Assembly: GCA_032718475.1 (NCBI GenBank)
Contig: JAUCBJ010005959.1
Location: 1-49,385 of the forward strand
From: Nemertoderma westbladi
Taxonomy: Eukaryota > Animalia > Xenacoelomorpha
DNA: 49,385 nt
Reading direction: 5' to 3'
Position numbers and translations under genes: made by a program. The stretch's first letter is position 1. The number at the start of each line of letters is the position of its first letter. Positions 16,771 to 43,203 of this stretch are shown here, piece after piece. The notes beneath the pieces are model-generated. The model was not told the DNA's origin. It did not search any database and was given only the letters and a program-made list of their open reading frames with translations.

Positions 16771-18970
16771 CATACGTGGTAACAACAAACCATCGCGTTT
16801 ATTTTAAGTCCGGAAATCGCAACTACCCTATGTTATTTCGGGACACTCGGCTGAAGCCCTCGCTTCAGCAGATGATAGTGGCAATGGTGGAATTGGTCTA
16901 TTGATGAATCCAACTGCACATGCAGCATTGGACAAAATAGACCAAATCTCTAACCGCATCATCCGTTGCCACTTCTCATGTTCTGGAAGACTGGCTAAGA
17001 AGTTTCCTAAGGTGGTTTTGATTGTGTGCTACTCTCCAACTAGTGTTGCCCCTGTAGAGGAGGTGGAAAATTTCTACCAGAATCTACAAGCAGCTACTGA
17101 TGGACTGGATCAGCATGCATTCTTAACATTCCTGGGAGACTTTAATGCAAGTCTGCATCAATCACCTACATCGCCCTGGGTCTATAGCAATAGTGTTAAC
17201 CGAAATTCCGTCCATCTTCAGGATTTTATCTCTGGAAATGGATTGTTTTCGGCTGGAACCCAGTTCAAGAAGCGAACTGGAAAGCTATGGACTCATTGTG
17301 GACCCAGTGGTCACAAGTCCCAGATAGACCATATCCTGTTTCGTAGGAAAAACAGGAGCTCTATACAAGACTGTAATGCATTTACACTATGACCCTTCTC
17401 CAGCGATCACCGCCTTATTGTGGCCAAGGTAAGACTTAGTCTGCGTGCTAGCAGAACAACGAAATCTGCCTTGCCGTGGCATGACTGGTCCTCTCTGTTG
17501 CAACAGCCAAGTGTGAGATCCAGCTTCACACTACAGCTGAGCAACAGGTATGAGGCTCTTGCCTCTGAGGTGGCAGATCACTGTGAGGGCTATACTGCCT
17601 TCACAGAGGCAGTTAAGTTAGCAGCTGCAGAAACAGTTCCTGTATACCCTTGAAACAGGAAACGGGCCCCCTGGACTGACAACAAAATTCAGAAGTGCCG
17701 AAATGACCTCTACAAGGCACAGAAAGAGTCCCGACTCAAACAGACTACAGCGGCCAAGAATGCAGTTAAGGCTGCATCTAGGTTCCTGAACAGGCAGTAC
17801 TCGGTTAATTTACAGGAGCTAATAAACAAACAGGTTGATGCCATCAATGATGCTGACGACAGCAGGCAATCATCCCAGGCATGGAGATCGATTAACTTGC
17901 TTGCTGGTCGAAAAAGCCAACCAACCACCAAGGTTAAGGCTGAATCACCAGCCGATCGCCTCAATGGTTGGAAGGCCCACTTTGAAAAGCTCCTCAATAA
18001 TGACAGGGTATTGCCTGATAACTTTATAGAAGTAAAAGTGTCTGAGTCTGTACTCCCAGATATTCCCATTGGTGATATCTCCTTTGCAGAAGTGAAGGCT
18101 GCTGCAAAGAGCATTAAGACCAATCGTGCCAGTAGAGTAGATGGTGTTCCCCCTGAGGTCTTTAAAATACCTGAGTGTTTAAGGCTCATCTATCCCATCA
18201 TAGTAGACATGTACCGTACAACAAGAGTCCCACAAGAAATGAAAACAAATAAGTTGGTGCCAGTTCCCAAGAAGGGCAACCTAACAATCTATGGTTCTTT
18301 TCGGGGAATCTCATTGATCTCAATTGCTGCAAAGCTATACAATAGAATTCTATTAAATCGCATCAGAGATCCCATTGAGAGACTGCTCCGTGGAAATCAG
18401 AATGGGTTCAGTAAAGGTCGTGGGACCATGGAGCCCATTTTTGCACTTAGAAGGATAATTGAAGAGTTATCCAAAAAGAAAGACAGGCATCTGGCTGTTA
18501 TCTTTGTTGACTTCTTCAAGGCCTTTGATTCAGTCTCTCACTCACGTATGTTCAGCATACTTTCATTATATGGGATTCCTGATGAAATTATTGCAGCAAT
18601 CAGATCAGTATACAATGGTTCGACAACATTTGTGTCTACTGTTGACAGTGACACAGAACCATTTGAAGTGTTATGGGGCGTCCTCCAGGGAGACACACTT
18701 GCACCATTCTTGTTCATAATTGTTGTTGACTATGTTCTACGCATGTCCTTAGATCATCATAATGATGATGGGGTGATGATAACTCCACCTACTGGCTCCA
18801 GAAGTCGAGGAAATCCTGCCAAGTACCTAACTGATCTAGACTTTGCTGATGACTTAGGAGTACTCTCAGAATCATTAGAGGGAGCCCAATGGCTCCTCAG
18901 CTCATTAGAACATGCTGCTTCTAGTGTTGGTCTTTTTATTAACTCCAGAAAGACCAAAATTTTGACAGTT
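16771..18970 (+). mobile_element. RTE-clade LINE, 5' part (APE and RT), with two in-frame stops
   Basis: ORFs 16901, 17420 and 17897 share one frame. Motifs: CYSPT, LGDFNA, QIDHIL, SDH, FRGISL, QNGF, FVDFFKAFDSV, GVLQGDTLAPFLF, DLDFADD. Confidence 0.93.
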
Positions 18971-19114
18971 GTGATGAATTATTTCACTATAAGATAGCAT
19001 TTGTAGTTTAACTTTAACGTAAAAACTTTCGAAAATCCGACGCATTTTGATTAAGTTACAGTAATGTAATATGCCTATTCATATTTGTACACATAAAACC
19101 CCTAGGTACTCTCA

Positions 19115-19198
19115 TGGCGTAGTGGTCAGATGGTTAAGGCGTTGGTTACATTACAGATAGGTTACGAGTTCGAATCCCGGTCGGAAAATTTGTATTTT
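19115..19198 (+). other. tRNA-derived Pol III promoter cassette in the LTR (second copy at 36039-36122)
   Basis: A box TGGCGTAGTGG (19115-19125), then tggttaaggcgttgg, B box GTTCGAATCC (19168-19177) and a T run near 19195. Acceptor and anticodon stems do not pair, so it is not an intact tRNA. Confidence 0.7.
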
Positions 19199-19234
19199 GG
19201 GACCATTTATTTTCATTTGGTGCAAATTGGTGGA

Positions 19235-19480
19235 CCAATGAGAAGCGTACAACGTAGCGAACGATGAGCCAGGCCAATCATGGGGCATAAAATATCTTAT
19301 TGCTCAAATGTGAGGCTATGGAAAATTCTGTTAGGATTCCATGTCCCAGATTAGTGTAAGGGCCGGATTGCGTTGAACGATGAGCTGGGCCAATCATAGG
19401 GCATAAAGCACTTTATTGCTCAAATGTGAAGCTGTGGAAAATTCTGTTTGGTTTCCATGTGCGATATTTAGTATAAAAGG
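19235..19480 (+). promoter_or_regulatory. LTR U3 promoter: duplicated CCAAT-containing unit plus TATA box
   Basis: Two diverged copies of gaacgatgagc..g.ccaatcat.gggcataaa...tgctcaaatgtga.gct.tggaaaattctgtt (about 19259 and 19376), then TATAAAA at 19472-19478. Confidence 0.65.
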
Positions 19481-22237
19481 CCGGTTTGCCTTCGGTTATC
19501 ACCTTCACCTTCACCCTTGTAAATTACCCCCTTCTTATATATTGTTATTAGTTTATTTGGTTTCTTGTTGAAACTTTGTTAAATCTGTTTGATAAATCCT
19601 TTGCTAAACTGTAATATACTGCAAATTCCTGAACATGTTTTCTTTTGGTCCAACTTTGGGACAGCCAAACAGCGGGAAGATGGCAGCCTAGACCGTTAGG
19701 CCGTCAGCAACGCAGGGGAAAGATGTCCACAACACGCTAGCGCCCACTTTGGATTTGACCGCGCACCCCCTTTGCCCTTCGAAATACTCCACTTGCCATG
19801 CAGCGCCCGCTTTGTGAGAAAGGTAAGACTTTGTTCGACGCCCTTGCCCGCCGTAAGACCTATAGATCAGGGTAAGCGTGACGCCGTCCTGGAATGCCGC
19901 AAAATTTAGGATCAAATAATTATATTTAGACAGGAACCCCCCCCCCCCCCCCCCCCCTTTTGTCATGTCCTGCAAACCCCTGGGTTAACCTGTACTTCTT
20001 ACAGGTGCGAACTATTGCCATTCGTCAGTACGCGAGTACATAGGTATGGACAGCATATGTTCCATAATTTAGTGATTCGTAGTACTGACTGTTTGGTACC
20101 GGTTCGCTTTGTAGAACGTACATTAGTACCCCCCCCCCCCCCCTGTCTGGAGTTAGCTATTTGATCAGGCAAGGAGTATTTCTGCTACCGGCACACTGCT
20201 TGGCCTAGGGAGGTTTTATTAATATCCTACCGCGCCTTGCCACATACTGATAGGTATTGCTGCTAACTACCGTGGCAACAAAGTTCTAGAATTAAATTAG
20301 TATACCAGATCAGCTAACGTATGGTAGCGATTAACCCCTATTTCTTATCTTACAACCAGAATCTGGTATTAGTGCCGATCACGGGTGTAGTTACTAACAC
20401 CGTGGTTGCCCATTGAGTTGTGGATAGGAAGGAGAGAGCTTTGACGTCATTTGTGAGTATAAAGTTCTACAAAACGCGACTAGTTTATTTTAGTAGCTAG
20501 CGCACGGTATCATTTCGGTCAGAAAATCACTAAAACCTAGTAAAAAAGGAGATACATAAAATTGTTTTATTTGTAACACACCCACACACACACGCCCTAA
20601 AACATATTCGCCCTTAGAGTTCTACTAGTTATAGCGTACTATATATTACTTTAGGCAGAATTTATCTGTATTTGTAAATTAGGATCTGATATTTAGTTAC
20701 GGCAAGAAGGAGCATTTCATTTTCGTTATTAAACTGTTGTTTCCTGTTCAGCAGTATTGTTACATTAGGCACGACCCTTTTCGACTGATTTAGGACTGAA
20801 TCAGTGTTGTTACGCTAGGTCTGTTAACCCACTAGCTCGTATATAAACCATATAAATCACACCGCGGCAAGTTACGATATTTAGGACTGTCAGTGATAGT
20901 TAGGATTCGCTACGCGGGGATTGTTTTCCCGTGAGTTTGGTCTGTTACTGTAACTGTACATCTGCCTCACCGGTTAGAGGACAGGTATCCTTTTGTCTAG
21001 TTTCGTAGGCATTAGACCCGCTCACGTACATAGAATAGACACTAGGCTCTGTTCCTCGCCAGTAGTCGTTTGTGTATTGTATCTGTTTGTTTAGATATCC
21101 TGGACTGGGATTTGTTGTCAGATACTGTACGAGCCCGTATACATTACTAGATCTTACGGTAAGATACATCGTTACTAGGATCCGGTAAGCGGTATACTAC
21201 TGGACCTTACAGTAAGAAGTACTATATAAATTAGTGTATAGTATTGTTTAGATATGTACGCTCTGTAAAGTGCATGCGCTCTTTACAGTGAGAAGTATTT
21301 ATTAAATATCTCGACCGAAGGTGCGTGCGCATTTAAGGTGGGATATATATATATAAATATTGTTAGCTATTGTAAGTAGGAGATATTTAAAATTTAAGGT
21401 TAGTAAATTTAGTAATTTAGAACGTCCCCTGCTTCAGTAGGCTTTTAGGGTAGCTAGTACTTTCGTATTTAATATTTGACTAGCTAACAGTTAGTTTGTA
21501 GCACTTTGTTTTACGCCGTGTGTGTGCGGTGTTACTTTCGGTACTTGAAAAGGTACATAGGGTTTAAAGACCAATTTGTATCGGTACCTAGGAAGATTTT
21601 TCGTAAGCGTAGAAGTAAAACTCTCACCTTCGACCTTTTCAGGACTCAAGGACTCATTTCTGGACCGCTTCGAGGATTAGACCGCTTTTCGCAAAGTTTG
21701 GGAGACAATAAATTCGTCCGCGCCACCGAAAAACGGAATGACCCACGTCCGGTTTGTATTTGGGAATTTGCACGACTGGAAGATCAAAGGAACGTAAGTT
21801 TTACGACTCACGTCGTTCAAACTTAAGAAAGCACAGTAGTACTCAAAATTTGTGGGTTTCACTGTCTATTAGTAGTGTTATTGGTACTTATTTTCCCGTT
21901 AGACGTTGCTGTTTTGCCTATTATTTGTACTTGTTGATCTATATTTTGGTAACGTATACCGTTATCTCATTTATTCGTACAAATTTAGCCGGTAGGCTAG
22001 ATTATTACTTATTTTATTGTATACTTTGTTAGTTTTATTTGTACCGGTTAGGGTATATATATGATATATATATATATCAAGGTAAGTTTGACATTTGTAC
22101 ATTTCGACATTCTGACTTGTTGATCTATTTGTACCGGTTGGGGTATATATATACTATATATACCAAGGTAAGTTTGACACTTCAACATTCAGACACTTTG
22201 ACATTTTATTACCTGTACTTGACGTATATAATAAGAC

Positions 22238-24799
22238 ATGAGTGACACACCCCATTCGACGAGATACCCACCTACCGACTATGACTCGTGCGACCCGGAC
22301 AGATCGACAGTAGACGAACCGAGAAGGAGAACCCGAGATTCCACCGATGTCACACCGCTTGCGTCGCCGGTACCCCGAATGGAAATACCGGAAGCCGCAA
22401 CGCGTGGCGACGGCAGAATCGAAGATTTCCTTACCGTCCCGCAGACCAGATCGCGGGAACCGGACATGGTAAGTTCGACTGGAAGCCAGGAGAACGTTAT
22501 TAGGAGTATAGGAGGACACATGGCCCAGATTACTCGGAACCTCGGAGAAGGTTTTCGCGTTTTACGCGAGTTAACCGCCCCGATGTCGAGATACGAGTTC
22601 TACACCTTACAAGTAAGGATAGAAAGTAGGGTACATGCCTCCGTAGATAAACTTAAAGGTTTACACGAACTTGCAGAGTTGCGTGGCGATAACTTTACTC
22701 AGGTAAAGATAATAGACAAGTTGGTAAGTGCGAGAGAAAGCCTTATCCAGTTTAAGTCGGTGATAAGATTGGCTCAACAGGAGCAGTTTGACCAACTGCT
22801 AGGTGAGTCAGTTTCGGACGCGTTGTTACAACCCGAAGAGGAAGAAGAACTCTACTGCCTGGACGGGAGGTTGGAAACGCTCACCAATTTTCTTCGTAGA
22901 TGCGGCGTACCGATCGACAAACCGGAAGTCGAACCGCGAGGAACGACGGAAGTTCTCACTACGGAAGGCTCGCGAGCCTACCAGCATCCACCTCTGGATA
23001 GATCGTTCGTTAGCATGCGGAGCGACGTTGGCGACGTTAGTAGGACAGCGTCTGTGATTACTCGACAACAATAGGACGTTGCACGCCGACAACAAGTCGC
23101 CGAGGAAGAAGCGCAACACCAGATGGCACAGATCGCCATCGAGGGAGAGAAACAATATAGAGAGGATGAGGCGAGAATTGCGCAACTCAAGGCGCAAGTC
23201 GAATTAGAATCCTCAGAGATGAGGAGACTAGAGGAAGATTTAGCACAAGAAGCAGCCGCAGCGGCGGCAGCCGACGAATTAGCACGGAAGAAAGCAGCAT
23301 CCGACGCTCGCGCCAAGTTGGAAGCGCGACAAATAGCCACTCGTTTAGCTATACAGGAAGCGGAGTTAGCGGCACAACAACAAGTAGCGGATCGACGCGA
23401 AAGGGAGATGCAACTACAGTTCGAATTAAATCGTAGATCGCGCGAGGCAGCGTACGCGCAAGCGGACCTTGAACTCGACGCGAGAGATAGATCTATAAGA
23501 TCGCGAGCTGGACACGACTTGTCTGCCCTGGATCGTATGGAAGCTCGATATCGCGGAATACAGAAGCGAATCGAGGAAGGAAGTGTGGGAGCGATAGATC
23601 GAGGAGAGGAGTTCGTCGAGGATTACTGTAAACGTTTTCCCCAAGTTATTCCTATGCTCAAACCCGCGACTTCGATAAAACCGGTCTTTGTTACGAAACC
23701 TAAGGAAATAACGCCTATGCGTTCGACGCAAGGCAACAGGTTTGTTGTGACGGAAATACCGCAACCTAGGGCGACTTCATCGCCAATTTTAGCAGGTAAC
23801 ATAACTATTCCACCTACAGTAAGTCGTAGTCTACTTGTAGGAAGAGAGGAACCTGCGTTTATGACCATTAAACAGGTGAGTAAACCATTACAAGTTAAAC
23901 CTGTGACGTGCTGTGCGAACCCAGTTATTTATAGACCGACTACGAAACCCGACTATTTCACTCAACCGTTGACACAATGTTCGACGCAACCTACGACTTC
24001 GTGGAAGGCTTGCGAGCCTACCGAACTACAGAGGAGGATGGATGTGGGTAGTACCCACGGGATCGGACAACGTATAACGAGACCTACGACTTGGTGGAAG
24101 GCTTGCGAGCCTACCGAACAACGGAGAGCCGTAGATCCCGGACCACAACGGACGAGACCGAGAATAATACGCCGGACACGAACCCACCAGCCATGTTATC
24201 TGGACGACAGCGACTCATCTAGTGACTCGGAGTCGACGGAACGGGAAATATTCCGTACTGGAGTGGCGGAGGATTACAAACGAGAGGACCCATCGATGAA
24301 CGCCTATATCGACAATCCACCTCGAGAAACACCCCAACAGAAACCCACGTTGAAACCAGCGGAAATGATCAGCGCCAAACAGTTCACCGAGATGACAGAC
24401 AGAATAGCTCAACTCGAAGAACGACTCGAAGCGCAACCGTCGGATCGATCACGAACCAGCGTGGAGTTGGAACAACCTAGACAACATCGACCATCAAGGA
24501 GAGAACAGGAGACTAGACGGACTCCGACACATCGAGAAGAAGATCCCGTTAATAATTCCTACCGACGAACAACGCGCGGAAGGGAGCGACTGGACGACGC
24601 CACCGAACAGGGACGCGGACAGTTGGATTTCGTTAGCGAGATTGCGAAATTTGCGGCTAGACACGGATTACCGGCACAGCAACCGCTGAAGTTCTCTGGC
24701 AACGCGAAACACTGGCGCACACTGGTAGACTACGTAGAGTCCCAGATCGCTAAGTGTGCTTTCACCTCGACGGAGAAGTTTAATTACTTAACTACTTAA
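22238..24799 (+). pseudogene. BEL/Pao gag N-terminal region (coiled coil, start of DUF1759-like domain)
   Basis: ORFs 22238-23074 and 23123-24799 are in one frame, split by a single TAG. Long E/A/R coiled coil; PLKFSGNAKHWRT...EKFNYL. Confidence 0.8.
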
Positions 24800-24948
24800 T
24801 TACTAACGCACCGACGGTTCTCATTCGAATAATCGGTCGACTTCACCATCGACTACGACGAGAATGGCGACGCATCGAGTACCAGCGTGAAGAGGCCGGA
24901 GGGTTATTAAAACTCACCGATGTCTATCAACTGATTTCACGGGAGGCC

Positions 24949-26499
24949 GTGATCGAGACTCGATCGAACTATACCGATCACCATATCGCGGCGGAAGGGA
25001 TAGCTATTTCTGCGCCGAATCAGACTAAACCACTTCCGACGAACGCGAAAGCCGTTACTTACGCCACCCCTACTGAGACTTCTAAAGTTCTGACGCCTAT
25101 CGGCACCACGCGGCCACGACAACAGTTGCCAGCGGACTTTGTAAGATGCTCATACTGCGAACAGAACGGCAGAAACTACAGCGGACATAAACTTCGTGGA
25201 TGTCGCGCTTTTAAGGAGTTAGGGATTGAAGAAAGGAGACTCCAAATCCGATCGTTAGATTCCTGCTGGAGATGTATGAAGCCAGGACACGTCCGGAAGG
25301 ATTGCCCGAGCGACGATACATGTCCTCAGTGTGGACGTAACCATGACGCGTTGCTTCACACAACCAGTCATACTCCGACCAAACGCTTTCGACGAGAGCA
25401 TCCAGATAAAGCAGCTAGATGCGACGCACTTTACAAGGAGCGTGCGCCGCGTGAGATCCGTACCTTTTATACAGACTGTATGGATCAGTCAGGATCATCG
25501 CACGAGGACAAGGAGGAAGACGACACTTTCTACGTGCATGCAGGTGAGGAACAGCCTTCGATAACGCTCCTCACACAGAACCAACTGAAAGGGTTTCGCG
25601 TGATTCCTATAAAGATTACCGGAACCCGAGGGAGCAAGCGTATATACGCCATCTTAGACTCTGCGTCATCGCATAGCTATGTCGACGAACAAGTAGCCGA
25701 CGTAGTTACGGACATGAGTCAAGGTAAGACTGCTCAGTATACTGTAAGCAGCATGCATGGTAAGAGAGCGATCCCTGTGACGAGAGTAAAACTAACTTTA
25801 GACACTCTTCTTTCCAAAGCGGAACACAGCAAGGAGGAGCGCTCATTACTTCCGGTAAGAAATTTGACCTTTGCAGCTACGAAGGACTTTAGTAACTTGC
25901 TCGGCCCTGTGCCAGAGCAATCACCAGAAGATCGTAAGTATTTCCGACACCTTGGAATACCGGAATGTCCTGTTAATTATCGTTCCATTGCGATGTTAAT
26001 TGGGACAGACCAGTTTAACTTACATCAGGTATGGGAGACACGCCCATCTGTTATTACAGCGGGCAACCCCTACGCATGTAAAACTCCCATAGGTTGGTAT
26101 ACTAGAGCACCAATACGTTCACTAGAGGTAAGTGACCAGGAGGACGACGTTTTGAGTATGTGTACTTTATTGACTAACACGATAGATAATTCTCCTTCAC
26201 ACTCCTGTGGTCCAATTGTACGGACGGCACTACGACAGACTTGCGTCACTAACGCAGATGCCACCGATACTGACGTAACCGATCTGGACACGACCATACG
26301 GACCTCTGACTTACAACTACTTGCAGTAGACCAGGTTGTATTGACTACTGAAGACCAAAGGGTTGTTGCCGTGGATGACTCGATGAACGAGGATTTTGGA
26401 AGGCTTGCGAGCCTACGAAAAATCCAAAGGTCATTGACCCCACCCACCAGGCTTCGACACCGGTCGTTGATCTTGGAAGGCTTGCGAGCCTACCGATAG
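24949..26499 (+). CDS. BEL/Pao gag zinc knuckles plus aspartic protease
   Basis: CSYC...H...C, CWRCMKPGHVRKDC, CPQCGRNHDALLH triple knuckle; AILDSASSHSYV; MLIGTD; KTPIGW. Confidence 0.92.
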   Translation: MIETRSNYTDHHIAAEGIAISAPNQTKPLPTNAKAVTYATPTETSKVLTPIGTTRPRQQLPADFVRCSYCEQNGRNYSGHKLRGCRAFKELGIEERRLQIRSLDSCWRCMKPGHVRKDCPSDDTCPQCGRNHDALLHTTSHTPTKRFRREHPDKAARCDALYKERAPREIRTFYTDCMDQSGSSHEDKEEDDTFYVHAGEEQPSITLLTQNQLKGFRVIPIKITGTRGSKRIYAILDSASSHSYVDEQVADVVTDMSQGKTAQYTVSSMHGKRAIPVTRVKLTLDTLLSKAEHSKEERSLLPVRNLTFAATKDFSNLLGPVPEQSPEDRKYFRHLGIPECPVNYRSIAMLIGTDQFNLHQVWETRPSVITAGNPYACKTPIGWYTRAPIRSLEVSDQEDDVLSMCTLLTNTIDNSPSHSCGPIVRTALRQTCVTNADATDTDVTDLDTTIRTSDLQLLAVDQVVLTTEDQRVVAVDDSMNEDFGRLASLRKIQRSLTPPTRLRHRSLILEGLRAYR

Positions 26500-26579
26500 A
26501 TCAAGAAGTTGTCAAACCGCCGCACGACGATTCGACGCCGACTAGTGACACCGGAAGGCTTGCGAGCCTACCAGACACC

Positions 26580-27560
26580 TTGACACTAGCCACCGCAGCG
26601 GATGAAGACGTGGACGAGGACCATGGCGCAGTGCAAGCAGCGCTAGACCGACTGCTGACTGAACGGACCATTCAATGGTTGGAACAGGACTCAGCAGAAC
26701 CCGGTAGTTACGAGATCGCTATGTCAGAACAGGAAAAACGGTCATTAAATATTATGAGAGATACCATTCGCCAGACCGCGAATGGCCACTATGAGGTTGG
26801 TATGTTGTGGCGCAATGGACAACCTAAGCTCGTTAACAATTACCCGCTTGCTTTGAGGCGACTCAAATCAATAAGGCAGCGATTATTGCGAGACGAGACG
26901 GCCCATATGCAATACAATGCACAACTTCAGACGTATCTCCAAAAGGGATACGCCATTAGGATGTTAAATCCCGAGGTAACCACAGACCAGACATATTACC
27001 TGCCACATCATTTTGTTCGACACCCGGACAAACCTGGCAAGGTGCGTGTAGTCAACGACTGCGCCGCGCTTTACCAAGGGATGTCTATGAACAGCGAACT
27101 GATGGACGGGCCGAATATGAACAATTACCTCATGGGAGTCCTAATGCGTTTTAGACAACGCAAAGTGGCTTTCACCTGTGACGTAGAGGCCATGTTTCAC
27201 CAGGTTAAGGCTTTGGAGCGGGACAGGGACAGCTTGAGGTTTCTTTGGTATCCGGACGGAAACTTACAACTTCCGCCAGAAACTTACCAAATGCAGGTAA
27301 GAGTATTCGGAGCCAGGGACAGCCCCAACTGCACCATGTACGCATTAAAGCAGACCGCATTAGACAGACGAGACCAATTTGACCCAGAAGTAGTTCGGAC
27401 CGTGGAACGAGACTTCTACGTGGATGACGGCCTCAAGAGTTGTGACACCTTGGAGCGCGCTACAACCGTAGCACACCAACTCCAGGATTGTCTCGCGGAG
27501 CGGCGGATTTCACCTGACGAAGTTCGCTTCCAACGAACCCGAGCTGGTGAACTCATTTGA
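26580..27560 (+). CDS. BEL/Pao reverse transcriptase
   Basis: YYLPHHFV..PDKPGKVRVVND, LMRFR, DVEAMFHQV, LRFLW, FGARDSP, DFYVDD. A one-base insertion near 27497 breaks GGFHLTKFASN. Confidence 0.96.
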   Translation: MTLATAADEDVDEDHGAVQAALDRLLTERTIQWLEQDSAEPGSYEIAMSEQEKRSLNIMRDTIRQTANGHYEVGMLWRNGQPKLVNNYPLALRRLKSIRQRLLRDETAHMQYNAQLQTYLQKGYAIRMLNPEVTTDQTYYLPHHFVRHPDKPGKVRVVNDCAALYQGMSMNSELMDGPNMNNYLMGVLMRFRQRKVAFTCDVEAMFHQVKALERDRDSLRFLWYPDGNLQLPPETYQMQVRVFGARDSPNCTMYALKQTALDRRDQFDPEVVRTVERDFYVDDGLKSCDTLERATTVAHQLQDCLAERRISPDEVRFQRTRAGELI

Positions 27561-30500
27561 CCCGATGGATCACAGTGGAGGTGACTTGGACTTAGACCTA
27601 GAACCTCTGCCGACGACCAAAGTATTAGGACTTAGTTGGGACCCTAACACCGACAATTTTAGGGTACGTGTAAGGTCCAACGACCAGACTAGACCTCTCA
27701 CTAAGAGGACTTGCTTATCGACCATGAGTCGATTGTATGACCCATTGTGTTTCATTAGTCCAGTGATCCTACATGCTAGGATCATACTCCGCAGCATTTG
27801 GCAAGCCGGACTGGAATGGGACGATCCCATCCCAGAAAAGTTAGCTGAGCGATGGAGGGACTGGGAAGCCCAACTGACGTTCCTACAAGACTATACCATA
27901 CTGAGGGTATACTTTCCTTTGCAAACCACCTTTCCTGCCGATTTAGAGCTTCACAGCTTTAGTGACGCTAGCAAGGATGGATTGGGGGTTACTTTGTACC
28001 TTAGACGACAAGTGACATCGGACAGCTACGATGTATCTCTCGTTACTTCAAGAGCTAGAACAATGCCATTGAATTATATGACTGTACCTCGTGGGGAGCT
28101 GCAAGCCGGGATGATATTCTCCGATATTGTCAGTCTAGTTCAACGCAAGCTGGAGGCTAACTTGAAGGTCACATATTGGACGGATGCGACGTTGGTACTT
28201 TGGTACATAAACAACGAAGCGTTTGAGTTCAAGACTTTCGTAGCCAACAGACGGGCTGAAATACTAGACCGGTCGCTCAAACAAGATTGGCGTCACTGTC
28301 CAGGGAAGCTGAACCCAGCTGACATCGCGTCACGGGGGATGCAACCACTTGACTTTTGTAAACCGGACAATAAATCCTTTTGGTTTAGAGGACCCGATTT
28401 CCTACAGCGACCATCAGACGAATGGCCACCGTTATTCGACGCGACAACCAACACCATACCAGAGGGTGCCGAGATAAAAATCGACAAGGTTGTCAAGTCT
28501 AAAGCGAAAGCCAATGCCAAGGTCAAAAGGAAAAAGGGACAGACGAAATCTGATGACCTGGACGCCAGACCTGACATTACGCCAGACGTCTCACCAGACA
28601 TTCGACCAGACGCTTGTACGAATTCTTCGCCGGATGTTCCGCGGGAGATTTCACCAGACGTTTCGCCGGATTGTTCACCAGATCACTCGCCAGACTATTC
28701 ACCAGAAGCGACACCAGATTGTTCTCCGGATTGTTTGCCAGACTGTTTGATGGAACTCTCGACAGAATGTCTACCGGACGTCTCACCAGACTTTCCACCA
28801 GACATCTCGACAGAATGTCCACCAGACTTTGAACCAGACTTTCTGACAGAAGTTACGCCAGACAGACCTTGGGACCGACGACAAGACATTTCGCTGGAAG
28901 TTCCGCGCTATGTCTCACCAGACGTCTCACCAGACTGTTCACCGGACGCTTCACCAGACTGTCTATTAGACACTCCATTAGAAGACCCATTGGAGCGGAC
29001 TTTTAGAGACTTACCGAATTTGACTTCTTTGGACGACAAAGGTGTGGCCACAGCGATCACACTCCGCTCAAAGAAAGTACTTGACTTACCTACAGGTAAA
29101 CGTGTGACTAAGGTTAGGAAGCTTACAGGCTCACAGGAACACACTGACACTGTAGAGTTGAAACCGTTACTGCCAGTCGACACATTAGGTGCGGACGGTA
29201 AAGGTAAGACCATAGAGATTGACGTACTTGGGGACTCAGACAAACCTACCGGAAGGCCCATGGGCCTACCAAGTCCAGACAAGTATCCACACTACGACTA
29301 CACCTTACCTGATGACGTCACCAACACTTACGTTGACAGGATAGTAAACCTAACTAGATCATGGACTGACGCATGCCGCAAGTTAGCATGGCTCAAACGA
29401 TTGAGACAATATGCCAGAGGCAAACGCGACTTTCCTAGAAGACTTACCTTAAAGGAAGTTGGCCACTGTGAAGTTGATATCATTAGACATTATCAATTGC
29501 GATATTTCGCACGAGAGTTCACAGCGATCAAACAAGGTAAACAGATTAAGTCTTCACCGATTTTGAGTTGGAGTCCGATTATTTACCGGGGCTTACTTTG
29601 TCACAAGTCCAGACTCCAAAAAATCGACTTTGCACTTGACTTTAGGTATCCTATCATCATACCGCAACACCATGAATTACAGCGCGCTATGATACTGGAC
29701 GCACATGTACAACTCAAACACGTGGGTAGACACCACTGTCTGTCACACTTACGCCCGAGGTTTGTACTGATTAGACCTAGTAAGGCACTGAGTTCGGTAA
29801 CGCGGAACTGTATTATTTGTAAGAAGGTGCACGCGAGGATAGGACACCAAGAAATGAGTGAACTACCACTAGCTAGATTACAGGCGTTTAGACCCCCTTT
29901 CACTGAGACAGGGATAGACTGTTTTGGACCCATAATCGCGAAACGCGGAAGGGTACAGGTAAAACGTTGGGGATTGATCTTCACTTGCATGGCCAGCAGA
30001 GCTGTCCATATAGAGCGAGTGACAGATTTGAACACCAATGCCTTTATCCTAGCCTTACGGCGATTTATCGCTAGACGTGGATTGGTCAAATCCATTTACT
30101 GCGACCAAGGGACAAACTTTGTGGGTGCACGGAACGAAATAACCAGAGCTTTGAGAAAGTTGGACCAAAACCAGATTTCCGAGGAACTACGTCCTCACCG
30201 TATTGTTTGGAATTTCAACACTCCAGACAGTACGTGGAGAGGTGGCGCTTGGGAAAGGCTGATTGGCTCAATTAAAACAGCTATGGCTAAAGTAGTACCG
30301 ACGCAACACATATTGACAGACGACCAACTGACGACGTTACTAATAGAAATCGAAGCAATCTTAAACACTAGACCGATCACTTTGATCCCAGACAATAACG
30401 ACGCACAGTTTGCCTTGACACCAGCGCACCTGCTTATGCAGGCGCCGACGACATTGTTGCCCATTTCGGTACCCGTTGATAGTGACGGATACGGCAACAA

Positions 30501-30837
30501 GGCTTGGAAAATCACTCAATTGCTTGCAAATAAATTCTGGGAAATATGGCTGAAATATTATTTGCCCTCTATTTCAACCAGAACCTCTTGGTATCTAAAT
30601 ACCCGATGTTTAAGACGTGGTGACCATGTTTTATTGGCTGAAGCAAATCTGAAAAGACGGTTTTGGCTGACTGGAGTCATTTTGACCACACACCCTACAT
30701 CTGGTGTAGTAAGGACAGTTACTGTAAGGACTATAGAGGGACGTACCGTAGATAGGCCTGTACAACGTCTCGTGCTCCTTGAAGAGACTAGAAACGAGAC
30801 AGGAGACTACAAATCTCCACCCAATATTAGTAAATAG
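27547..30837 (+). CDS. BEL/Pao RNase H (Pao peptidase A17 region) plus integrase
   Basis: KVLGLSWD, LYDPL, LHSFSDAS, TVPRGEL, WTDA, NPADIASRG; H..HVG...CIIC; TGIDCFGP, IYCDQGTNFVGA, GGAWERLI, LNTRPIT, RPVQRLVLL. Confidence 0.96.
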   Translation: MNSFDPMDHSGGDLDLDLEPLPTTKVLGLSWDPNTDNFRVRVRSNDQTRPLTKRTCLSTMSRLYDPLCFISPVILHARIILRSIWQAGLEWDDPIPEKLAERWRDWEAQLTFLQDYTILRVYFPLQTTFPADLELHSFSDASKDGLGVTLYLRRQVTSDSYDVSLVTSRARTMPLNYMTVPRGELQAGMIFSDIVSLVQRKLEANLKVTYWTDATLVLWYINNEAFEFKTFVANRRAEILDRSLKQDWRHCPGKLNPADIASRGMQPLDFCKPDNKSFWFRGPDFLQRPSDEWPPLFDATTNTIPEGAEIKIDKVVKSKAKANAKVKRKKGQTKSDDLDARPDITPDVSPDIRPDACTNSSPDVPREISPDVSPDCSPDHSPDYSPEATPDCSPDCLPDCLMELSTECLPDVSPDFPPDISTECPPDFEPDFLTEVTPDRPWDRRQDISLEVPRYVSPDVSPDCSPDASPDCLLDTPLEDPLERTFRDLPNLTSLDDKGVATAITLRSKKVLDLPTGKRVTKVRKLTGSQEHTDTVELKPLLPVDTLGADGKGKTIEIDVLGDSDKPTGRPMGLPSPDKYPHYDYTLPDDVTNTYVDRIVNLTRSWTDACRKLAWLKRLRQYARGKRDFPRRLTLKEVGHCEVDIIRHYQLRYFAREFTAIKQGKQIKSSPILSWSPIIYRGLLCHKSRLQKIDFALDFRYPIIIPQHHELQRAMILDAHVQLKHVGRHHCLSHLRPRFVLIRPSKALSSVTRNCIICKKVHARIGHQEMSELPLARLQAFRPPFTETGIDCFGPIIAKRGRVQVKRWGLIFTCMASRAVHIERVTDLNTNAFILALRRFIARRGLVKSIYCDQGTNFVGARNEITRALRKLDQNQISEELRPHRIVWNFNTPDSTWRGGAWERLIGSIKTAMAKVVPTQHILTDDQLTTLLIEIEAILNTRPITLIPDNNDAQFALTPAHLLMQAPTTLLPISVPVDSDGYGNKAWKITQLLANKFWEIWLKYYLPSISTRTSWYLNTRCLRRGDHVLLAEANLKRRFWLTGVILTTHPTSGVVRTVTVRTIEGRTVDRPVQRLVLLEETRNETGDYKSPPNISK
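28560..28975 (+). repeat. Degenerate 12-bp coding repeat (x-S-P-D units) between RNase H and integrase
   Basis: tcaccagac-type units encode DVSPDCSPDHSPDYSPE..., in frame with pol. Confidence 0.9.
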
Positions 30838-31572
30838 ATGTGGGACCTTTGTTGGCCGCCACATAGACCTACTGTATTTTAGTTATTTTGTATTTGTATT
30901 ACTGTACGTGCATTTGTAATCCTCTTCACTGTAGATAGAGACAGCGGTGGAATTCCATTGTCTTTATATGTGAACATGGAGGGTAGTACCCTTATGTATC
31001 ACATAGGAGCGGGATTGTGTGTACAGTAGGAATGGAATTCCACTTGGAACCCACAAGTGAGACAATTTTTCAAAAATTATTAGACAAATCCATTTATTTG
31101 GATTTAAATTTAAGAAAAACGAATCTCCAGTGAATGCGAATTCTAGAATACAGCTAGATAAAAATTAAAATTGGGGAGGACAAGAGCGGATGGAAGGCTT
31201 GCGAGCCTACCGATAAATTTTTTTTGGAAAAGAAAACCAGCCTTGTTCTACGTAGTCGTGTCTACTATCATTTAGACCAATTAATTCTCGACTGCACTAT
31301 TTTCTTGGGGAATGTAGCATGGGAAATTAAAAGGTGAGTATTTTAGACTCGCGGCTAGTTTACCCGGAATTCGTTTTTTATCGGCACATTTTTTGGATTA
31401 GGAGCCAGTGCGAAATCACGCGAACCCGAAATCATTAGGCAAATGGGTTGGGGTTTAGAGCAGAGTTGAGCCAAAAGCCGACAAACTCTAAGTCACCTCA
31501 CATCTAACCTCTATTTTGTGCTTCATCTACTAGAAACGTAACGATATGTAACCACATATATATTCATATACG

Positions 31573-34500
31573 ATGGCGGAGAAGATGTATAAAGAGTTAC
31601 GTCAAGGGTTTACGCAAGAACAAGAGCACCAGGCGCCATTCAATCGTTATGGAGCTAAAAACTTTAGTGTGTTTGGAGTGGAGAGTATGGTTAGGAGTAC
31701 GGCCAAGCTCGCTAAATCCAAGGCGGACCCAAATGTTACGCGACAGCGGTTGGACGCATACAACAAAAGAACGGAGGAATTACGCGCTGAGTTCAATGCA
31801 TTATATCCCTACGATGCGTTATGCGACGCTAGCGGTAAATGAACCGACGGGGATGACCGAGTTTGACGGTAAATGAACCCTTACCTGCAGCTAGAGACGA
31901 ATTTGAAGGAATGCTTCTTTATAGACGCACTCGAGGAGCGGATCCTGAGACCAAGGATGCGTTCTCCATATACAAACTGTTTTATAAATGTGGAGCGTGT
32001 ATGCGCGAGCAAGACAACGCGATTCCTATGCGGTTGAACTCGGAGAACCCCGAGCCGATATTAGCGCGATGTTCACACCACCAAAGTCTACGTTACCAAG
32101 AAGGCGGATACCCTTTGACAAATCCGTATCATTCGTTTAAAATGAGTGGACCGAACGTGGGTGAGATCGTTATTTACGAACCCAAATTAGTCGAACCAGA
32201 CATCTACAGCATGTTAGTGGACGAGTCTAATAAGTCGACACAAGAGCTTTGAGCCTCTACAGGGCGTACAAGGCGTATGAGAAAGGCGAGATCGAGGAGT
32301 TCGGCGGAAGGCTCGCGAGCCTACCATTCTATTGGATATCCCACGATCAAACCGAACCCAAGGAGATGACACCCGAGCTCTTTGATAGTATCACCTTTGC
32401 TCAGCGTTTGTCGCAGAGACTACAGATACCTCATGTCGAGATGACGCGAGAACCTCAGCCCCATTCTACTGGAGCGATAGTACCGGTTGCGAGACCAACT
32501 AGTTTTCCTATTAGTATACCGACCCGGAAGGAGACAACTTACGAGATCCCTATAGTTGAACACCCGGAGATCATCTCGAACCTGGATTTCCTTGCGTAAA
32601 GTAATAGTTCAAAAAATCGTACGCAACGTGCCTCCACATATTACGGACTTTAAGGAAGTAGATCGCGCGGGGACGGATATTGCACCTTGTATCTTGCGAG
32701 GATATCTGACGAAGACGATTCGATTATGGATCGGAGTTGGAACGTTTGAGACCGACACCGATATCGCGACCAATTGGACCGGTAAACCTATTAGTTTCGA
32801 TGATGAAAAGTCGATTGGGAGAATTTGGAACCCTACCGACGATTTACTCGACGATTGGGACGTGACTAGCCGATCTCTAAAGGAGAATGGTTATATGTTT
32901 TACGATAATGAAGGAGGAAGCCATCAGCAAAGCCTCACTTCAAAGACTATACAGATTAGAGCACCAGATGGCGTGTTACATGTCTTCAGCCGACAGAGGA
33001 GTGATAGGAAGATGCCTATGCCGGAAGGAACGACGCAAAGATACACGATGATAAAACAGATAGTTAAATCCATGGACCTGGCTTGTAGCATCGAAGCTAG
33101 GATGTTGCCAAAGGCCGTGCGAGACGTTGTGTTGGATAAGAGCATCGTCAAGATCGGATCCGGTGTACGGGATGACCTTATTAGCGACTTTGCAGGGATG
33201 CCCACGGAAAAGGACCGATTGCCTACGCCATACGTGGATACTAGACCATTGTTGCTTTGGGCTATTGAGCAAGGATATTTTAGGGAGTATAACACGCTAA
33301 AAACTGGGACAGGTTATATCTCATATCTAATGTTCAGTTGGGATTACAAGGAGAGTAAGAGGAGCAAATACACGGACGTATACGGAGAGGGAGATACCCC
33401 CGGCGTAAACGAGTTCGAGTCACAGTTGAAGTGGCGAGGTTGCGTGTATTGGGCGATTACTTCACCTCCGCGGATAATCTTGCAATACTATTTAGCGATA
33501 GAATCTTCGGTTAACGTTTGTTTCATCGCAGATGTAGTATCCAGAACCCTAAAGCGACACCCGTTATGTCTTAGCGAAGGACATACCTTTTACGATGGAG
33601 GAAGGACGCATACTGATGTATTCCGACGATTTCTCCAACCCTTTTATAACACTGATGCGCACTGCGAAGTTTTCACGCGAGCGGGACTTAGCGTTTTCAG
33701 GGACGTCTATCTCACTCACGCGGGAAGTCTAGTCGACAGACCGTCGATGTTAACGTTAGTACCCTACGACGGGGAACACCACGCGGAATTCGAATGCCCG
33801 GAAGGATCCTGGAAGCCTCGCGAGCCTACCGCCCATCACGACGATGTGGATCCGACCGAGTTGGCGCTAATAGACGAACCGTTACGGCAACTCATAGAGA
33901 TAGAGGAGAACCTTCCGAGGAAGACGCGAACTGAAATACGCGAGTTGGAGAAAAGCGATGCCATGGTTTGTGTACAACCTACGGAGACGAACATACCGAC
34001 TGACCCGGATGATGAGAATTATCACGTGGACGGTAGCGCTCGCCCCATCGGAGATCTCATCTATGAGCGAGTTTGGTATCCTGCCAACACTATTTGTGGC
34101 AGATGCGGAGCAACTGGCCATCACGCAAAGAAATGCGGAGCGAAGCACATATCTCTACCGGATTTAGTATGTAACTGGTGCGGGGATCAACGTTTGCACA
34201 CTTTCTACACTTGCTGGCGTTTCGTGGCGCAGTGCACTTATTGTAATATTAAGGGCCATAGGGCATCCGAATGTCAACTTAGAGACGTCCCCTATGAGCA
34301 CATGTCAGTTAAAATCGTTCGACAATTATTCGACCATTGGGAGGATCAAGCAGACGAACATGTATCGACGCAGCGACGCCGCTTCCCTATGAGAGCACAT
34401 TTGGGATTTTGGGCCGTAAACCCTCTCATAATGTCAAAGGAAGGATATGTATCGGCTATGCCTCAGTATGATGAATTGTTGGAGGTGTTGGATATATTGC

Positions 34501-35249
34501 CATTGGACAGCGGATTCAAAGTTGTGCGGGACTATTTCTTACAAGTGCACCCCGACAACAAGAATACTTGGAACTTTCAAACTGTGGTGAACAAGATTAC
34601 CGCCGGAGAATTCGATAAACTGCGAGTTGAACAGCGGAATCGAGGAGCCTGGCATTCGATAGCTTGGGCATACCGGAGCGCATTTTATCACAAACGAGTA
34701 ACCTCGTGTATTCTAGACGAGACCGACGTTTTGCGTGAGACTGGCTTCAAGGCCACGCCGTTAGCAGAGAAGACGCGTCACCCACAGGATGATCAGCAAT
34801 TTCGTATACTCAAAGCCCAGAAGTCCGGACAAGAGATAAAGAACATAGTAAATGTCGCCGAGAGGACGACATCGAAGTCGCAAATCCGGATGACTCGGGG
34901 CACGGTTTCCCTTGCTAGAGAACCACGCGGAGGGACAGGATACGCTTTGCCTGAACCCATTAGGATTCAAACGACGTCAGAGAGCAAGGTGTCAGCGGAC
35001 GGAACAGTCCCACCCTTTCGACTTCCTCCTAGCGTTGTGGAGACTCGATCCGATGTTAAGCCGACAGTTGGAATCGGACGAGGATTTAGAGGATTGAGCG
35101 CACGACGGATGTGCGAAACTCCCGTCGTCCCCTTTCCTAGCGTTTTGGAACCACCGACGACTCGACGCCGAAGTCCGAGCCCAGTTCGACCTCGACCACC
35201 CCCCAATCGCACTAGAGAACATGGACGAGCCCGCTCAGCGAAGGAATAG
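31573..35249 (+). CDS. Extra ORF: DEDDy (WRN/EXD/RNase D-like) 3'-5' exonuclease plus three CCHC zinc knuckles; N-terminal part frameshifted
   Basis: ExoI KPISFDDEK (32784-32810), TIQIRA, LPKAVRDVVLDKSIVKIGSGVRDDL (ExoII), YVDT, ExoIII-like QYYLAIE (33483-33503). Knuckles CGRCGATGHHAKKC, CNWCGDQRLHTFYTC, CTYCNIKGHRASEC (34095-34274). Intact block is 32556-35249. Confidence 0.75.
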
Positions 35250-35284
35250 GAAGCGAGTAGAAGGAAGGCTTGCGAGCCTACCGA

Positions 35285-35365
35285 TTTGGATATTATATTT
35301 GGATATTATATTTGGATATTATATTTGGATATTATATTTGGATGTTTATATTGGACATTATGTTT
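35285..35365 (+). repeat. 14-bp tandem repeat (tttggatattatat), about 5 copies, in the 3' UTR
   Basis: Directly visible between hairpin copies at 35263 and 35399. Confidence 0.9.
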
Positions 35366-35895
35366 GAATGTTGGGTTTGTAGGAGCGAGATATGGAAAGG
35401 AAGGCTTGCGAGCCTACCGTTAGTAATTAGTGCTCAGGAGAAGATATCCAGACCAGCAGGACGAACTTTAAGCTTGTCAGGAGGACCCTTTAAGACTCAT
35501 TTTAAAGTTATTAGCGCATTGTGTTTATATTATATTTGAACTGATTTAATTTGGTGGAAGTTTATTATGTATATTTACAATATGTAAAGATTTATCGAAA
35601 GAGTTACAATTATTTGTTCGATTTGTTTTGATTTATTTGTTCTGATTTGTTTAATTTGCTTACCTTGATAACCGAAAGCCTTTTTTGTATTTTAGGCACT
35701 AAAGTTAATTAGTAAATTTGTATTTGTATGTACGATCGATTGTATTTACGCCGTATCTGCAATATTAAGTATGCCATAATTAGATAGTGATTATATTTTA
35801 TATTTTAGGCCCTACCAGTAGATTTAGAAGTAGTTTGTAAACATTTTATATTTCGATTGGTGAAAACAGTCTTACTTACTGTTTTCATGGAGCGG

Positions 35896-38046
35896 TGATG
35901 AATTATTTCACTATAAGATAGCATTTGTAGTTTAACTTTAACGTAAAAACTTTCGAAAATCCGACGCATTTTGATTAAGTTACAGTAATGTAATATGCCT
36001 ATTCATATTTGTACACATAAAACCCCTAGGTACTCTCATGGCGTAGTGGTCAGATGGTTAAGGCGTTGGTTACATTACAGATAGGTTATGAGTTCGAATC
36101 CCGGTCGGGAAATTTGTATTTTGGGGCCATTTATTTTCATTTGGTGCAAATTGGTGGACCAATGAGAAGCGTACAACGTAGCGAACGATGAGCCAGGCCA
36201 ATCATGGGGCATAAAATATCTTATTGCTCAAATGTGAGGCTATGGAAAATTCTGTTAGGATTCCATGTCCCAGATTAGTGTAAGGGCTGGATTGCGTTGA
36301 ACGATGAGCTGCGCCAATCATAGGACATAAAGCACTTTATTGCTCAAATGTGAAGCTGTGGAAAATTCTGTTTGGTTTCCATGTGCGATATTTAGTATAA
36401 AAGGCCGGTTTGCCTTCGGTTATCACCTTCACCTTCACCCTTGTAAATTACCCCCTTCTTATATATTGTTATTAGTTTATTTGGTTTCTTGTTGAAACTT
36501 TGTTAAATCTGTTTGATAAATCCTTTGCTAAACTGTAATATACTGCAAATTCCTGAACATGTTTTCTTTTGGTCCAACTTTGGGACAGCCAAACATCGGG
36601 AAGATGGCAGCCTAGACCGTTAGGCCGTCAGCAACGCAGGGGAAAGATGTTCACAACACGCTAGCGCCCACTTTGGATTTGACCGCGCACCCCCTTTGCC
36701 CTTCGAAATACTCCACTTGCCATGCAGCGCCCGCTTTGTGAGAAAGGTAAGACTTTGTTCGACGCCCTTGCCCGCCGTAAGACCTATAGATCAGGGTAAG
36801 CGTGACGCCATCCTGGACGCCGCAAAATTTAGGATCAAATAATTATATTTAGACAGGAACCCCCCCCCCCCCCCCCCCCCTTTTGTCATGTCCTGCGAAG
36901 GTTCGTAGTACTGACTGTTTGGTACCGGTTCGCTTTGTAGAACGTACATTAGTACCCCCCCCCCCCCCCCCCCCCTCCTGTCTGGAGTTAGTTATTTGAT
37001 CAGGCAAGGAGTATTTCTGCTACCGGCACACTGCTTGGCCTAGGGAGGTTTTATTAATATCCTACCGCGCCTTGCCACGTACTGATAGGTATTGCTGCTA
37101 ACTACCGCGGCAACAAAGTTCTAGAATTAAATTAGTATACCAGATCAGCTAACGTACGGTAGCGATTAACCCCTATTTCTTATCTTACAACCAGAATCTG
37201 GTATTAGTGCCGATCACGGGTGTAGTTACTAACACCGTGGTTGCCCATTGAGTTGTGGATAGGAAGGAGAGAGCTTTGACGTCATTTGTGAGTATAAAGT
37301 TCTACAAAACGCGACTAGTTTATTTTAGTAGCTAGCGCACGGTATCATTTCGGTCAGAAAATCACTAAAACCTAGTAAAAAAGGAGATACATAAAATTGT
37401 TTTATTTGTAACACACCCACACACACACGCCCTAAAACATATTCGCCCTTAGAGTTCTACTAGTTATAGCGTACTATATATTACTTTAGGCAGAATTTAT
37501 CTGTATTTGTAAATTAGGATCTGATATTTAGTTACGGCAAGAAGGACCATTTCATTTTCGTTATTAAACTGTTGTTTCCTGTTCAGCAGTATTGTTACAT
37601 TAGGCACGACCCTTTTCGACTGATTTAGGACTGAATCAGTGTTGTTACGCTAGGTCTGTTAACCCACTAGCTCGTATATAAACCATATAAATCACACCGC
37701 GGCAAGTTACGGTATTTAGGACTGTCAGTGATAGTTAGGATTCGCTACGCGGGGATTGTTTTCCCGTGAGTTTGGTCTGTTACTGTAACTGTACATCTGC
37801 CTCACCGGTTAGAGGACAGGTATCCTTTTGTCTATTTTCGTAGGCATTAGACCCGCTCACATACATAGAATAGACACTAGGCTCTGTTCCTCGCCAGTAG
37901 TCGTTTGTGTATTGTATCTGTTTGTTTAGATATCCTGGACTGGGATTTGTTGTCAGATACTGTACGAGCCCGTATACATTACTAGTTCTTACGGTAAGAT
38001 ACATCGTTACTAGGATCCGGTAAGCGGTATACTACTGGACCTTACA
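35896..38046 (+). repeat. 3' LTR (2151 bp)
   Basis: Preceded by PPT-like atggagcgg. Lacks the segment equivalent to 19974-20075, which is replaced by gaagg at 36897-36901. Confidence 0.96.
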
Positions 38047-38739: not shown

Positions 38740-39019
38740 CATACCATACCCTCTACTCTCTTTCTACGTGGCGCTTTCGGTGCCCACAACCTCTAACTCT
38801 CTCGGTACTATGTATCCTGCTACTACTCTCGTGGTATGTCTATATACCACACTCCCTAACTTCTAACTTCTTACTAACTCTTACTAACTTCTAACTAGTG
38901 CTACCTACTATGTAACTAACTACTACTATTACTTTCTAACTTTCTACTATCTCACTTCTTATTTATTATTTTTATTATTTATATTTTATTTTATGTGTGA
39001 GAAGGGCGTCTAGCCCACA
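38740..39019 (-). repeat. Truncated 3' LTR of the minus-strand BEL/Pao element
   Basis: Minus strand reads PPT gaggggggtgggat then TGTGGGCTAG.... It stops at the RTE tail without a CA end. Confidence 0.55.
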
Positions 39020-42000: not shown

Positions 42001-42070
42001 GGTCCCCTCCACATCCCCGTATCGCACGATCTATTCTGGTCCAAGGGGTTTGGGGTTTTTGTTCTCAGTT

Positions 42071-43113: not shown

Positions 43114-43203
43114 AATGGGTCACCCTGCCCCCCCCCCCCCCCCCCCCACCGGTGTTATATTTGGTATTGGGGTTGATGTTACCATATTAGGGCCCATATA
43201 CCT

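Follow-up and report, generated by a model that had tools for sequence, protein, structure and literature searches.

A 19-kb BEL/Pao-lineage retrotransposon of Nemertoderma westbladi with a candidate LTR-RNA self-primer, a sense-strand hairpin array and a probable DEDDy-like third ORF

The window analysed here is contig JAUCBJ010005959.1 (assembly GCA_032718475.1) of the xenacoelomorph Nemertoderma westbladi, 49,385 nt read on the forward strand. It carries a long terminal repeat (LTR) retrotransposon with BEL/Pao-type enzymes, an 11-nt LTR segment complementary to the primer-binding site (PBS) position, twelve copies of one hairpin and a third open reading frame (ORF3) after gag-pol. A first-pass annotation had put these parts forward as a candidate new system. 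We found that an LTR-derived complement of the PBS position recurs in relatives that have neither ORF3 nor the hairpins, and we read the parts as adaptations, probably three separate ones, that share an oversized RNA. The general anatomy of the locus is as follows.

17654-38701, plus strand: interrupted host long interspersed nuclear element (LINE); its reverse transcriptase (RT) frame occupies 17654-18966 and continues beyond 38047
18967-18971: left target-site copy, AGTTG, identical to the right copy at 4 of 5 bases
18972-38046, plus strand: whole element, 19,075 nt
18972-21211, plus strand: 5' LTR, TG...CA, 2240 nt
19235-19479, plus strand: TATA/CCAAT promoter motifs, namely three CCAAT boxes (19235, 19274, 19390) and TATAAAAG at 19472
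22238-24799, plus strand: N-terminal part of gag, of unusual length and with no homologs; a stop at 23072-23074 breaks it
24784-26499, plus strand: C-terminus of gag (three Cys-His motifs) followed by protease (LDSAS at 25654)
26379-27560, plus strand: RT frame (YVDD at 27417), 41-49% identical to 80 BEL/Pao loci
27472-30837, plus strand: RNase H (Peptidase_A17), a linker insertion of ~300 amino acids with 12-nt repeats, integrase and DUF5641
35887-35895, plus strand: weak polypurine tract, a short purine-rich tract ahead of the 3' LTR
35896-38046, plus strand: 3' LTR, TG...CA, 2151 nt
38047-38051: right target-site copy, AGTTA

The element was inserted in the RT frame of the LINE with a target duplication matching at 4 of 5 bases, and the empty-site joint (18966 to 38047) was present in contigs from three of four sequencing runs. 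Runs X1 and X3 covered all 30 bins of the element and listed more than 1000 variant sites, which indicated a multi-copy family. Contigs of runs X3 and X4 jump over 31834-32043 and 32107-35119; they represent a variant that has lost most of ORF3 by internal deletion, and by its coordinates the form lacking 32107-35119 keeps 10 of the 12 hairpin sites. The two LTRs differ by 21 substitutions (~0.9% divergence) and two larger indels, and about 100 nt of the 5' LTR (19974-20076) are replaced by a few bases at ~36897-36901 in the 3' LTR. With 19 substitutions counted, two at a deletion edge being excluded, the Kimura two-parameter distance was 0.009. The copy is young, as had been claimed, yet it is not intact, since its gag-pol is split over five frames. 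Transitions make up 16 of the 21 LTR differences, many of them at CpG, a pattern that hints at methylation of this copy.

The promoter motifs predict a transcription start near 19500, ~490 nt upstream of the PBS complement, and a full transcript of ~17 kb. U3 also holds a tandem duplication of 116-nt units (19259-19468) with a CCAAT box in each unit. A further stretch of U3, 19108-19192 (and 36032-36116 in the 3' LTR), we take to be tRNA-like or resembling a short interspersed element, with A-box-like and B-box-like motifs; ARAGORN and Rfam left 19108-19192 uncalled, and neither gave anything relevant for the window.

Pfam matches followed the BEL/Pao order (zinc knuckle, RT, Peptidase_A17, integrase zinc domain, DUF5641), with an LTR-flanked gag-pol arranged as protease, RT, RNase H and integrase. 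RT and RNase H were nearest to BEL/Pao, to judge by Peptidase_A17 and DUF5641. The best 120 RT matches came from marine invertebrates and metagenomes; most of these proteins had the same domains, and the nearest were all BEL/Pao. Gag shows the three Cys-His motifs; the capsid domain DUF1759, which we adopted from relatives as a marker of BEL/Pao Gag, was unmatched in Pfam, the region spanning a frame break. Within pol, 12-nt repeats at 28578-28972 encode a linker rich in (S/P)PD, which separates RNase H from integrase and is missing in relatives.

The International Committee on Taxonomy of Viruses (ICTV) gives BEL/Pao genomes 4.2-10 kb, LTRs of 0.2-1.2 kb and an 18-nt PBS for tRNA-Arg/Gly (PMC8742986). 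The element shares with BEL/Pao (Belpaoviridae, Semotivirus) the LTRs, gag followed by protease, RT, RNase H and integrase, and the Peptidase_A17 and DUF5641 domains, but it is far bigger (19,075 nt), its LTRs are longer (2240 and 2151 nt), the 18-nt tRNA-Arg/Gly site is absent, the third ORF is not env-like and a hairpin array is added. Because of its PBS and its size, we classed it as a BEL/Pao-lineage variant and not as a typical Semotivirus. The first-pass assignment to BEL/Pao with 2.2-kb LTRs agreed with the domain order and LTR lengths. The epithet "giant" fits in that 19 kb is far over the BEL/Pao norm, but the element falls below the published threshold of a 20-kb internal region (PMC6431247).

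Directly after the 5' LTR the sequence reads GTAAGAAGTAC, and TGG is absent. The following features bear on priming.

19988-20006, plus strand: local 7-bp hairpin with a CUUCU loop, containing the PBS complement (-8.3 kcal/mol for 19985-20012)
19992-20002, plus strand: exact 11-nt complement of the PBS position, candidate 3' end of a self-primer
21212-21222, plus strand: non-tRNA PBS position, flush with the LTR end and splice-donor-like (GTAAGA)
21289-21299, plus strand: second PBS-like site, which the 11-mer of 19992-20002 can pair with if two G-U pairs are allowed (-10.2 versus -13.5 kcal/mol)

As the earlier reading of a missing TGG and an 11-nt self-complement had it, the reverse complement of bases 21212-21222 occurs without mismatch at 19992-20002. 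The pairing is flush with the LTR end. An 11-mer complement at offsets 0-4 arose in 8 of 1500 dinucleotide shuffles of the LTR. The observed one was the longest match among 375 internal control positions and formed the best duplex along the whole LTR (-16.4 kcal/mol, the next being -10.5). Given the predicted start near 19500, it is probably not the first 11 nt of the RNA. Four donor-like GTRAG motifs lie near the LTR end (21159, 21185, 21212 and 21288, within 21140-21300), in predicted U5 hairpins. Two other arrangements were set aside: a splice-built complement in the element itself, whose best split match was 7 nt, the background level, and a kissing loop, the PBS-side hairpin being marginal at -0.5 kcal/mol.

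We compared the element with 80 distant BEL/Pao loci (RT identity 41-49%), many of them incomplete and many nearly identical to one another, as they stem from a small number of sampling campaigns. In 73 of them, the upstream sequence was long enough for the PBS to be tested. A split complement was counted when the bases 0-4 nt after CA paired over at least 11 nt across the exon-exon junction of a GTRAG..YAG intron. Such LTR-derived complements were found in 21 of the 73 loci and in 0/73 coding-region controls. In many of the metagenomic loci, the PBS complement (10-15 nt) arises only on removal of a GT..AG LTR intron of 67-256 nt, and the match is located at the LTR end wherever that end is defined. 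Split-type loci include the metagenomic BEL/Pao loci L007, L016, L019, L029, L034, L048, L065 and L071. By our own count on a quick tree, with one 10-nt group included, ~15 RT lineages have a split complement (in the tree labels the 10-nt matches L022, L076 and L078 were removed, and L019 and L037 added). A tRNA-type TGG site was present in 4 of the 80 loci.

ORF3 had no tblastn match in any of the 80 loci, and none of the 80 held a dispersed 12-mer repeat family. In the split-type loci with a located 3' LTR (17/17), 212-862 nt follow the integrase, LTR included, against 5059 nt here; there is therefore no ORF3 in those 17 relatives. Because relatives show the signature without ORF3 or hairpin array, non-tRNA priming needs neither cargo. 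Judged by this signature, it is a lineage-wide trait independent of both. Non-tRNA priming, as previously proposed, was thus a reasonable inference that the relatives support independently, but it stands apart from the other features.

The hairpins are distributed along the internal region.

22963-22982, plus strand: hairpin 1, CGCG loop, in gag
24003-24115, plus strand: hairpins 2 and 3 (24003, 24096), a local duplication in gag
26398-26572, plus strand: hairpins 4-6 (26398, 26475, 26553), in a protease-RT linker missing in relatives
29251-29270, plus strand: hairpin 7, with a CAUG loop and one compensatory pair, C-G in place of U-A
31192-31211, plus strand: hairpin 8, in a non-coding spacer
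32306, plus strand: hairpin 9, within the short frames upstream of ORF3
33811, plus strand: hairpin 10, in ORF3 between the DEDDy-like and knuckle domains
35263-35418, plus strand: hairpins 11 and 12 (35263, 35399), in the 3' untranslated region

The earlier count of twelve sense-strand hairpins was confirmed: all are near-identical 20-nt stem-loops in one orientation, all lie between the LTRs and none within them, and the chance expectation is 0. Their layout is GG, A, 5 bp, a 4-nt loop, 5 bp, A and CC, with an invariant A-A mismatch. Paired bases fill 97.6% of the stem cells, and one copy combines a compensatory pair with a different loop. Every reading frame is represented among the copies, which avoid the conserved domains, and three of them are non-coding. 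Eleven of the twelve lie where 0/45 full-length relatives can be aligned, and the twelfth where 3/45 can. Eight separate sites have ~21 nt in common, with unrelated flanks. The constraint looks to act at the nucleic-acid level and to be strand-specific, and a cis-acting RNA array of protein-binding tags is a reasonable inference; several strand-specific stem-loops with a shared motif are a trait of dispersed packaging signals too. A scan of viral contigs for the hairpin gave two single matches, in near-identical unrelated contigs, which we took as chance.

The region after integrase contains ORF3 and the frames ahead of it.

31505-31533, plus strand: putative 3' splice site with its branch point, from which a subgenomic ORF3 mRNA could be made
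31573-32599, plus strand: short frames 31573-31842, 31857-32252 and 32234-32599, either a broken ORF3 N-terminus or separate small ORFs
32556-35249, plus strand: ORF3, 897 codons, first Met at codon 114
~32895-33510, plus strand: probable DEDDy-like domain of ORF3, with D117/E119, D207 and Y312/E316 assigned by motif order
34095, 34170 and 34233, plus strand: three CCHC-type knuckles of ORF3 (codons 514, 539 and 560), below the cut-off of Pfam zf-CCHC

The first Met falls at motif I, and the true start of ORF3 would therefore lie upstream, in the short broken frames. The claim that the ORF sits behind a splice acceptor can be kept for a candidate at 31533, which ranked second of 144 AGs, but its score was low, and it lies 1 kb ahead of the long frame with the short broken frames in between. 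In a language-model Atlas, ORF3 residues 40-400 fell near WRN-like exonucleases (top scores 0.91-0.92); 24 of 30 matches were in the PF01612 set, and PF01612 was on 38% of the named cluster. With hhalign, a profile of 20 bacterial DEDDy proteins aligned with ORF3 over 43 columns at motif II (E 0.003-0.008), a score reached by none of 60 shuffles. HMMER placed its best match, a weak one, on motif II in three of four profiles, with 4-7 of 300 shuffles as high, and BLAST to RNase D gave a weak match in the same region. No ORF3 homologs were found in word-index searches, among 1.84 billion representatives, or in metagenome contigs, the PDB or phages, and a single-sequence AlphaFold2 model was unusable (predicted local distance difference test score of 31). 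We regard a DEDDy-like fold as probable, and rate exonuclease activity lower. Of the DEDDy and CCHC modules ascribed to this ORF, the three knuckles are there and the DEDDy module is probable, but no Pfam exonuclease was matched.

Taken together, we give a probability of roughly 55% to the reading of this locus as an oversized, multi-copy element with BEL/Pao enzymes, which would prime from its own LTR RNA, carry hairpin tags for packaging by Gag and encode a separate DEDDy/knuckle accessory. Transcription would start near 19500. The Gag nucleocapsid would open the local hairpin and anneal 19992-20002 to the PBS, the RNA would be cut just 3' of 20002, by analogy with the RNase H cut in Tf1, and the 5' RNA piece would prime minus-strand DNA flush with the LTR end. 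Unlike that of the relatives, this primer would require no splice. We consider these self-priming steps likely. The hairpins would be bound as RNA tags during assembly around the ~17-kb transcript, most likely by Gag, which we preferred as reader because choosing a very long RNA is Gag's job, and by analogy with the dispersed packaging signals of viruses (PMC6281560); we place this role a little short of even odds. The ORF3 protein would be made from a spliced mRNA and would trim or bind RNA ends, like the ORF3s of rotifer elements. It would be unnecessary for priming and is likely a separate accessory.

Several observations weigh against this reading. The 3' LTR of this copy lacks the 19992-20002 segment, most simply through a deletion after insertion, and the PBS complement is contiguous, not split as in the relatives. 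On folding 19501-21320, the long-range PBS pair had a probability of 0.00 and local hairpins won, so that a chaperone would be needed for annealing. Covariation in the hairpins was not significant (43/500 shuffles), 5 of the 12 failed to fold in their own 220-nt context, the antisense strand folds equally well, and the copies are in part local duplications, three clusters leaving the eight sites. For ORF3, the hhalign probability of the DEDDy match was just 5-11%, motifs I and III were assigned by visual inspection, although in the right order, the fourth acid is E and not D, and no exonuclease match was obtained in Pfam, NCBIfam, PHROGs, the PDB or three protein searches. Lastly, in a quick RT tree with the 80 loci the element lay on a long branch (1.25) without a supported neighbour; the relatives compared are therefore distant.

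The main rival to Gag as reader of the hairpins, although an unlikely one, is a host transport factor such as Egalitarian (Egl). The hairpins would then be transport or export signals read by the host, like the I-factor stem-loop carried to the oocyte by Egalitarian-BicD. Egl binds a retrotransposon stem-loop, its exonuclease-homology domain touching the stem non-catalytically (PMC13186709). Moreover, four hairpins would remain on the spliced ORF3 mRNA and would therefore not mark genomic RNA alone. However, the stems have merely 7 pairs, and nothing ties them to a host factor.

The idea of one integrated system survived less well. Here, the ORF3 knuckles would read the hairpins while the exonuclease trims the unpaired 3' tail of the self-primer to 20002; in one form, an LTR intron that stops at AG 20004 would supply the primer as its 3' tail, with two bases to remove. 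ORF3 and the hairpins do occur together here and in none of the 80 relatives. The PBS complement is internal to the predicted transcript, with an AG next to it and GTRAG donors 130-180 nt upstream, and the AG-free stretch ahead of it is the fourth longest of 134. An internal primer would need an exact 3' end, and nuclease-plus-knuckle proteins trim RNA ends, as a protein of trypanosomes with RNase D and zinc-finger parts does on guide RNAs (PMC7797062). Yet relatives show the priming signature without ORF3, and for this reason we judged the integrated model improbable. ORF3-less variants exist (runs X3 and X4), and the co-occurrence of ORF3 and hairpins is known from one family. The intron-tail primer was further weakened by the rank of AG 20004, fourth by pyrimidine count but outside the top 10 of 134 by the relatives' intron matrix, and by its position in the 3' arm of the local hairpin, which accounts for it. 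As a claim of the first-pass annotation, the single system therefore fails for priming, given 17 relatives with an LTR complement and no room for ORF3; among related elements the PBS complement occurs in 21/73, ORF3 and the array in 0/80. Still less probable is the form in which the knuckles dock on the hairpins and the nuclease trims the LTR-derived RNA end, perhaps the tail of an excised intron, to the very base that adjoins the LTR, in replacement of both the tRNA and the primer made by splicing in the relatives. ORF3 and the hairpins may or may not be linked to each other, since no other element with either was found.

About as improbable as the integrated model is a role of the 11-nt pairing as an RNA switch, which would hide the donor GTAAGA at 21212 and set the ratio of genomic to spliced ORF3 RNA, a host RNA serving as primer. 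The PBS position does match the GTRAG donor motif, as do three other sites within 130 nt, and the donor word and its complement make up five of the 11 paired bases. But the pairing is flush at the LTR boundary, as a primer requires, the leader has stronger donors, and relatives share the geometry (offsets 0-4) with different sequences that are mostly not donor-like. Finally, it is very doubtful that RT pausing and template switching at a near-palindrome left the hairpins behind as neutral by-products. In favour of this, local duplications make up three clusters and the coding copies all lie in poorly constrained linkers. Against it, the eight sites share their ~21 nt amid unrelated flanks, 12/12 run in the same direction even though two of the three frames would leave the reverse form open, a compensatory change is seen in one copy, and none of the 80 relatives has the hairpins.

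Self-priming has been described for Tf1/Tf2/Tj1 and for Tf1/sushi elements and predicted for plant Tcn1 and copia TAR (PMC7175516, PMC4600332, PMC6317226). In common with Tf1/sushi, the present element lacks a tRNA site and has 11 nt of LTR that can pair with the bases adjoining the 5' LTR. It does not have their Ty3/gypsy chromovirus Pol: Tf1/sushi, Tcn1 and TAR are Ty3/gypsy or copia, whereas this element is BEL/Pao. Tf1 takes its primer from the very 5' end of its RNA, the first 11 nt (PMC7175516), whereas here the predicted start lies ~490 nt upstream, and the BEL/Pao relatives assemble their complement across an intron. DEDDy ORF3s are known from the Juno and Vesta LTR elements (Gypsy-type) and the Terminons of bdelloid rotifers (PMC5408684, PMC6431247, PMC5718144). 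These resemble our ORF3, probably an exonuclease-type ORF, in their env position and in an altered acidic motif, DEED in their case (PMC5408684), but belong to a different retrotransposon lineage; three CCHC knuckles and a long tail distinguish the ORF described here. The architecture proposed for ORF3, a DEDD nuclease followed by knuckles, is found in Trypanosoma brucei RNase D with a C-terminal zinc finger (PMC7797062; PDB 7c42, CCHC-type), which is a cellular mitochondrial enzyme with no sequence link to ORF3 in a PDB search. The dispersed packaging signals of single-stranded RNA viruses likewise consist of many small stem-loops with a shared motif across the genome, but they are degenerate and their binding by coat protein is shown, whereas the copies here are near-identical candidate tags (PMC6281560). 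A literature search that covered few subscription papers and no supplements, and cited sources in part, found no report of BEL/Pao self-priming, of an LTR-intron primer, of a BEL/Pao exonuclease cargo or of multiple or dispersed packaging stem-loops in retrotransposons. The available parts of PMC3601003 and PMC13524379 contain nothing on priming in BEL/Pao.

Elsewhere in the window, a second, broken BEL/Pao-type element lies on the minus strand at ~39000-44450, with DUF1759 at 41294-41854 (E 2.6e-12), a protease-like motif, 288-nt and 33-nt tandem repeats and none of the hairpins. A 54-nt array of ~28 copies (2698-4175) is followed by a broken LINE that has endonuclease and RT domains (4179-10088), and a 355-codon frame at 46427-47494 has no significant Pfam match.

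BEL/Pao replication is described as poorly understood and tRNA-primed (PMC8742986). The main survey of these elements dropped those above 15 kb that lacked a shorter call (PMC3118150), and forms like the present one may be under-represented as a result. As a cis-feature the hairpin array is real but unexplained. Being a defined 20-nt candidate cis-signal present twelve times, it offers a handle on how an RNA far beyond the usual 4-10 kb is selected and packaged. The exonuclease cargo is probably an extension of a known arrangement; if true, BEL/Pao would join the rotifer Gypsy-type elements as carriers of DEDDy-type ORF3 cargo. We see the greatest value in BEL/Pao self-priming, including the splice-built form, for which the relatives are clearer than this element. 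Our comparison suggests that a large part of the BEL/Pao lineage primes from its own LTR RNA and that, in many of its families, the primer sequence exists only after splicing.

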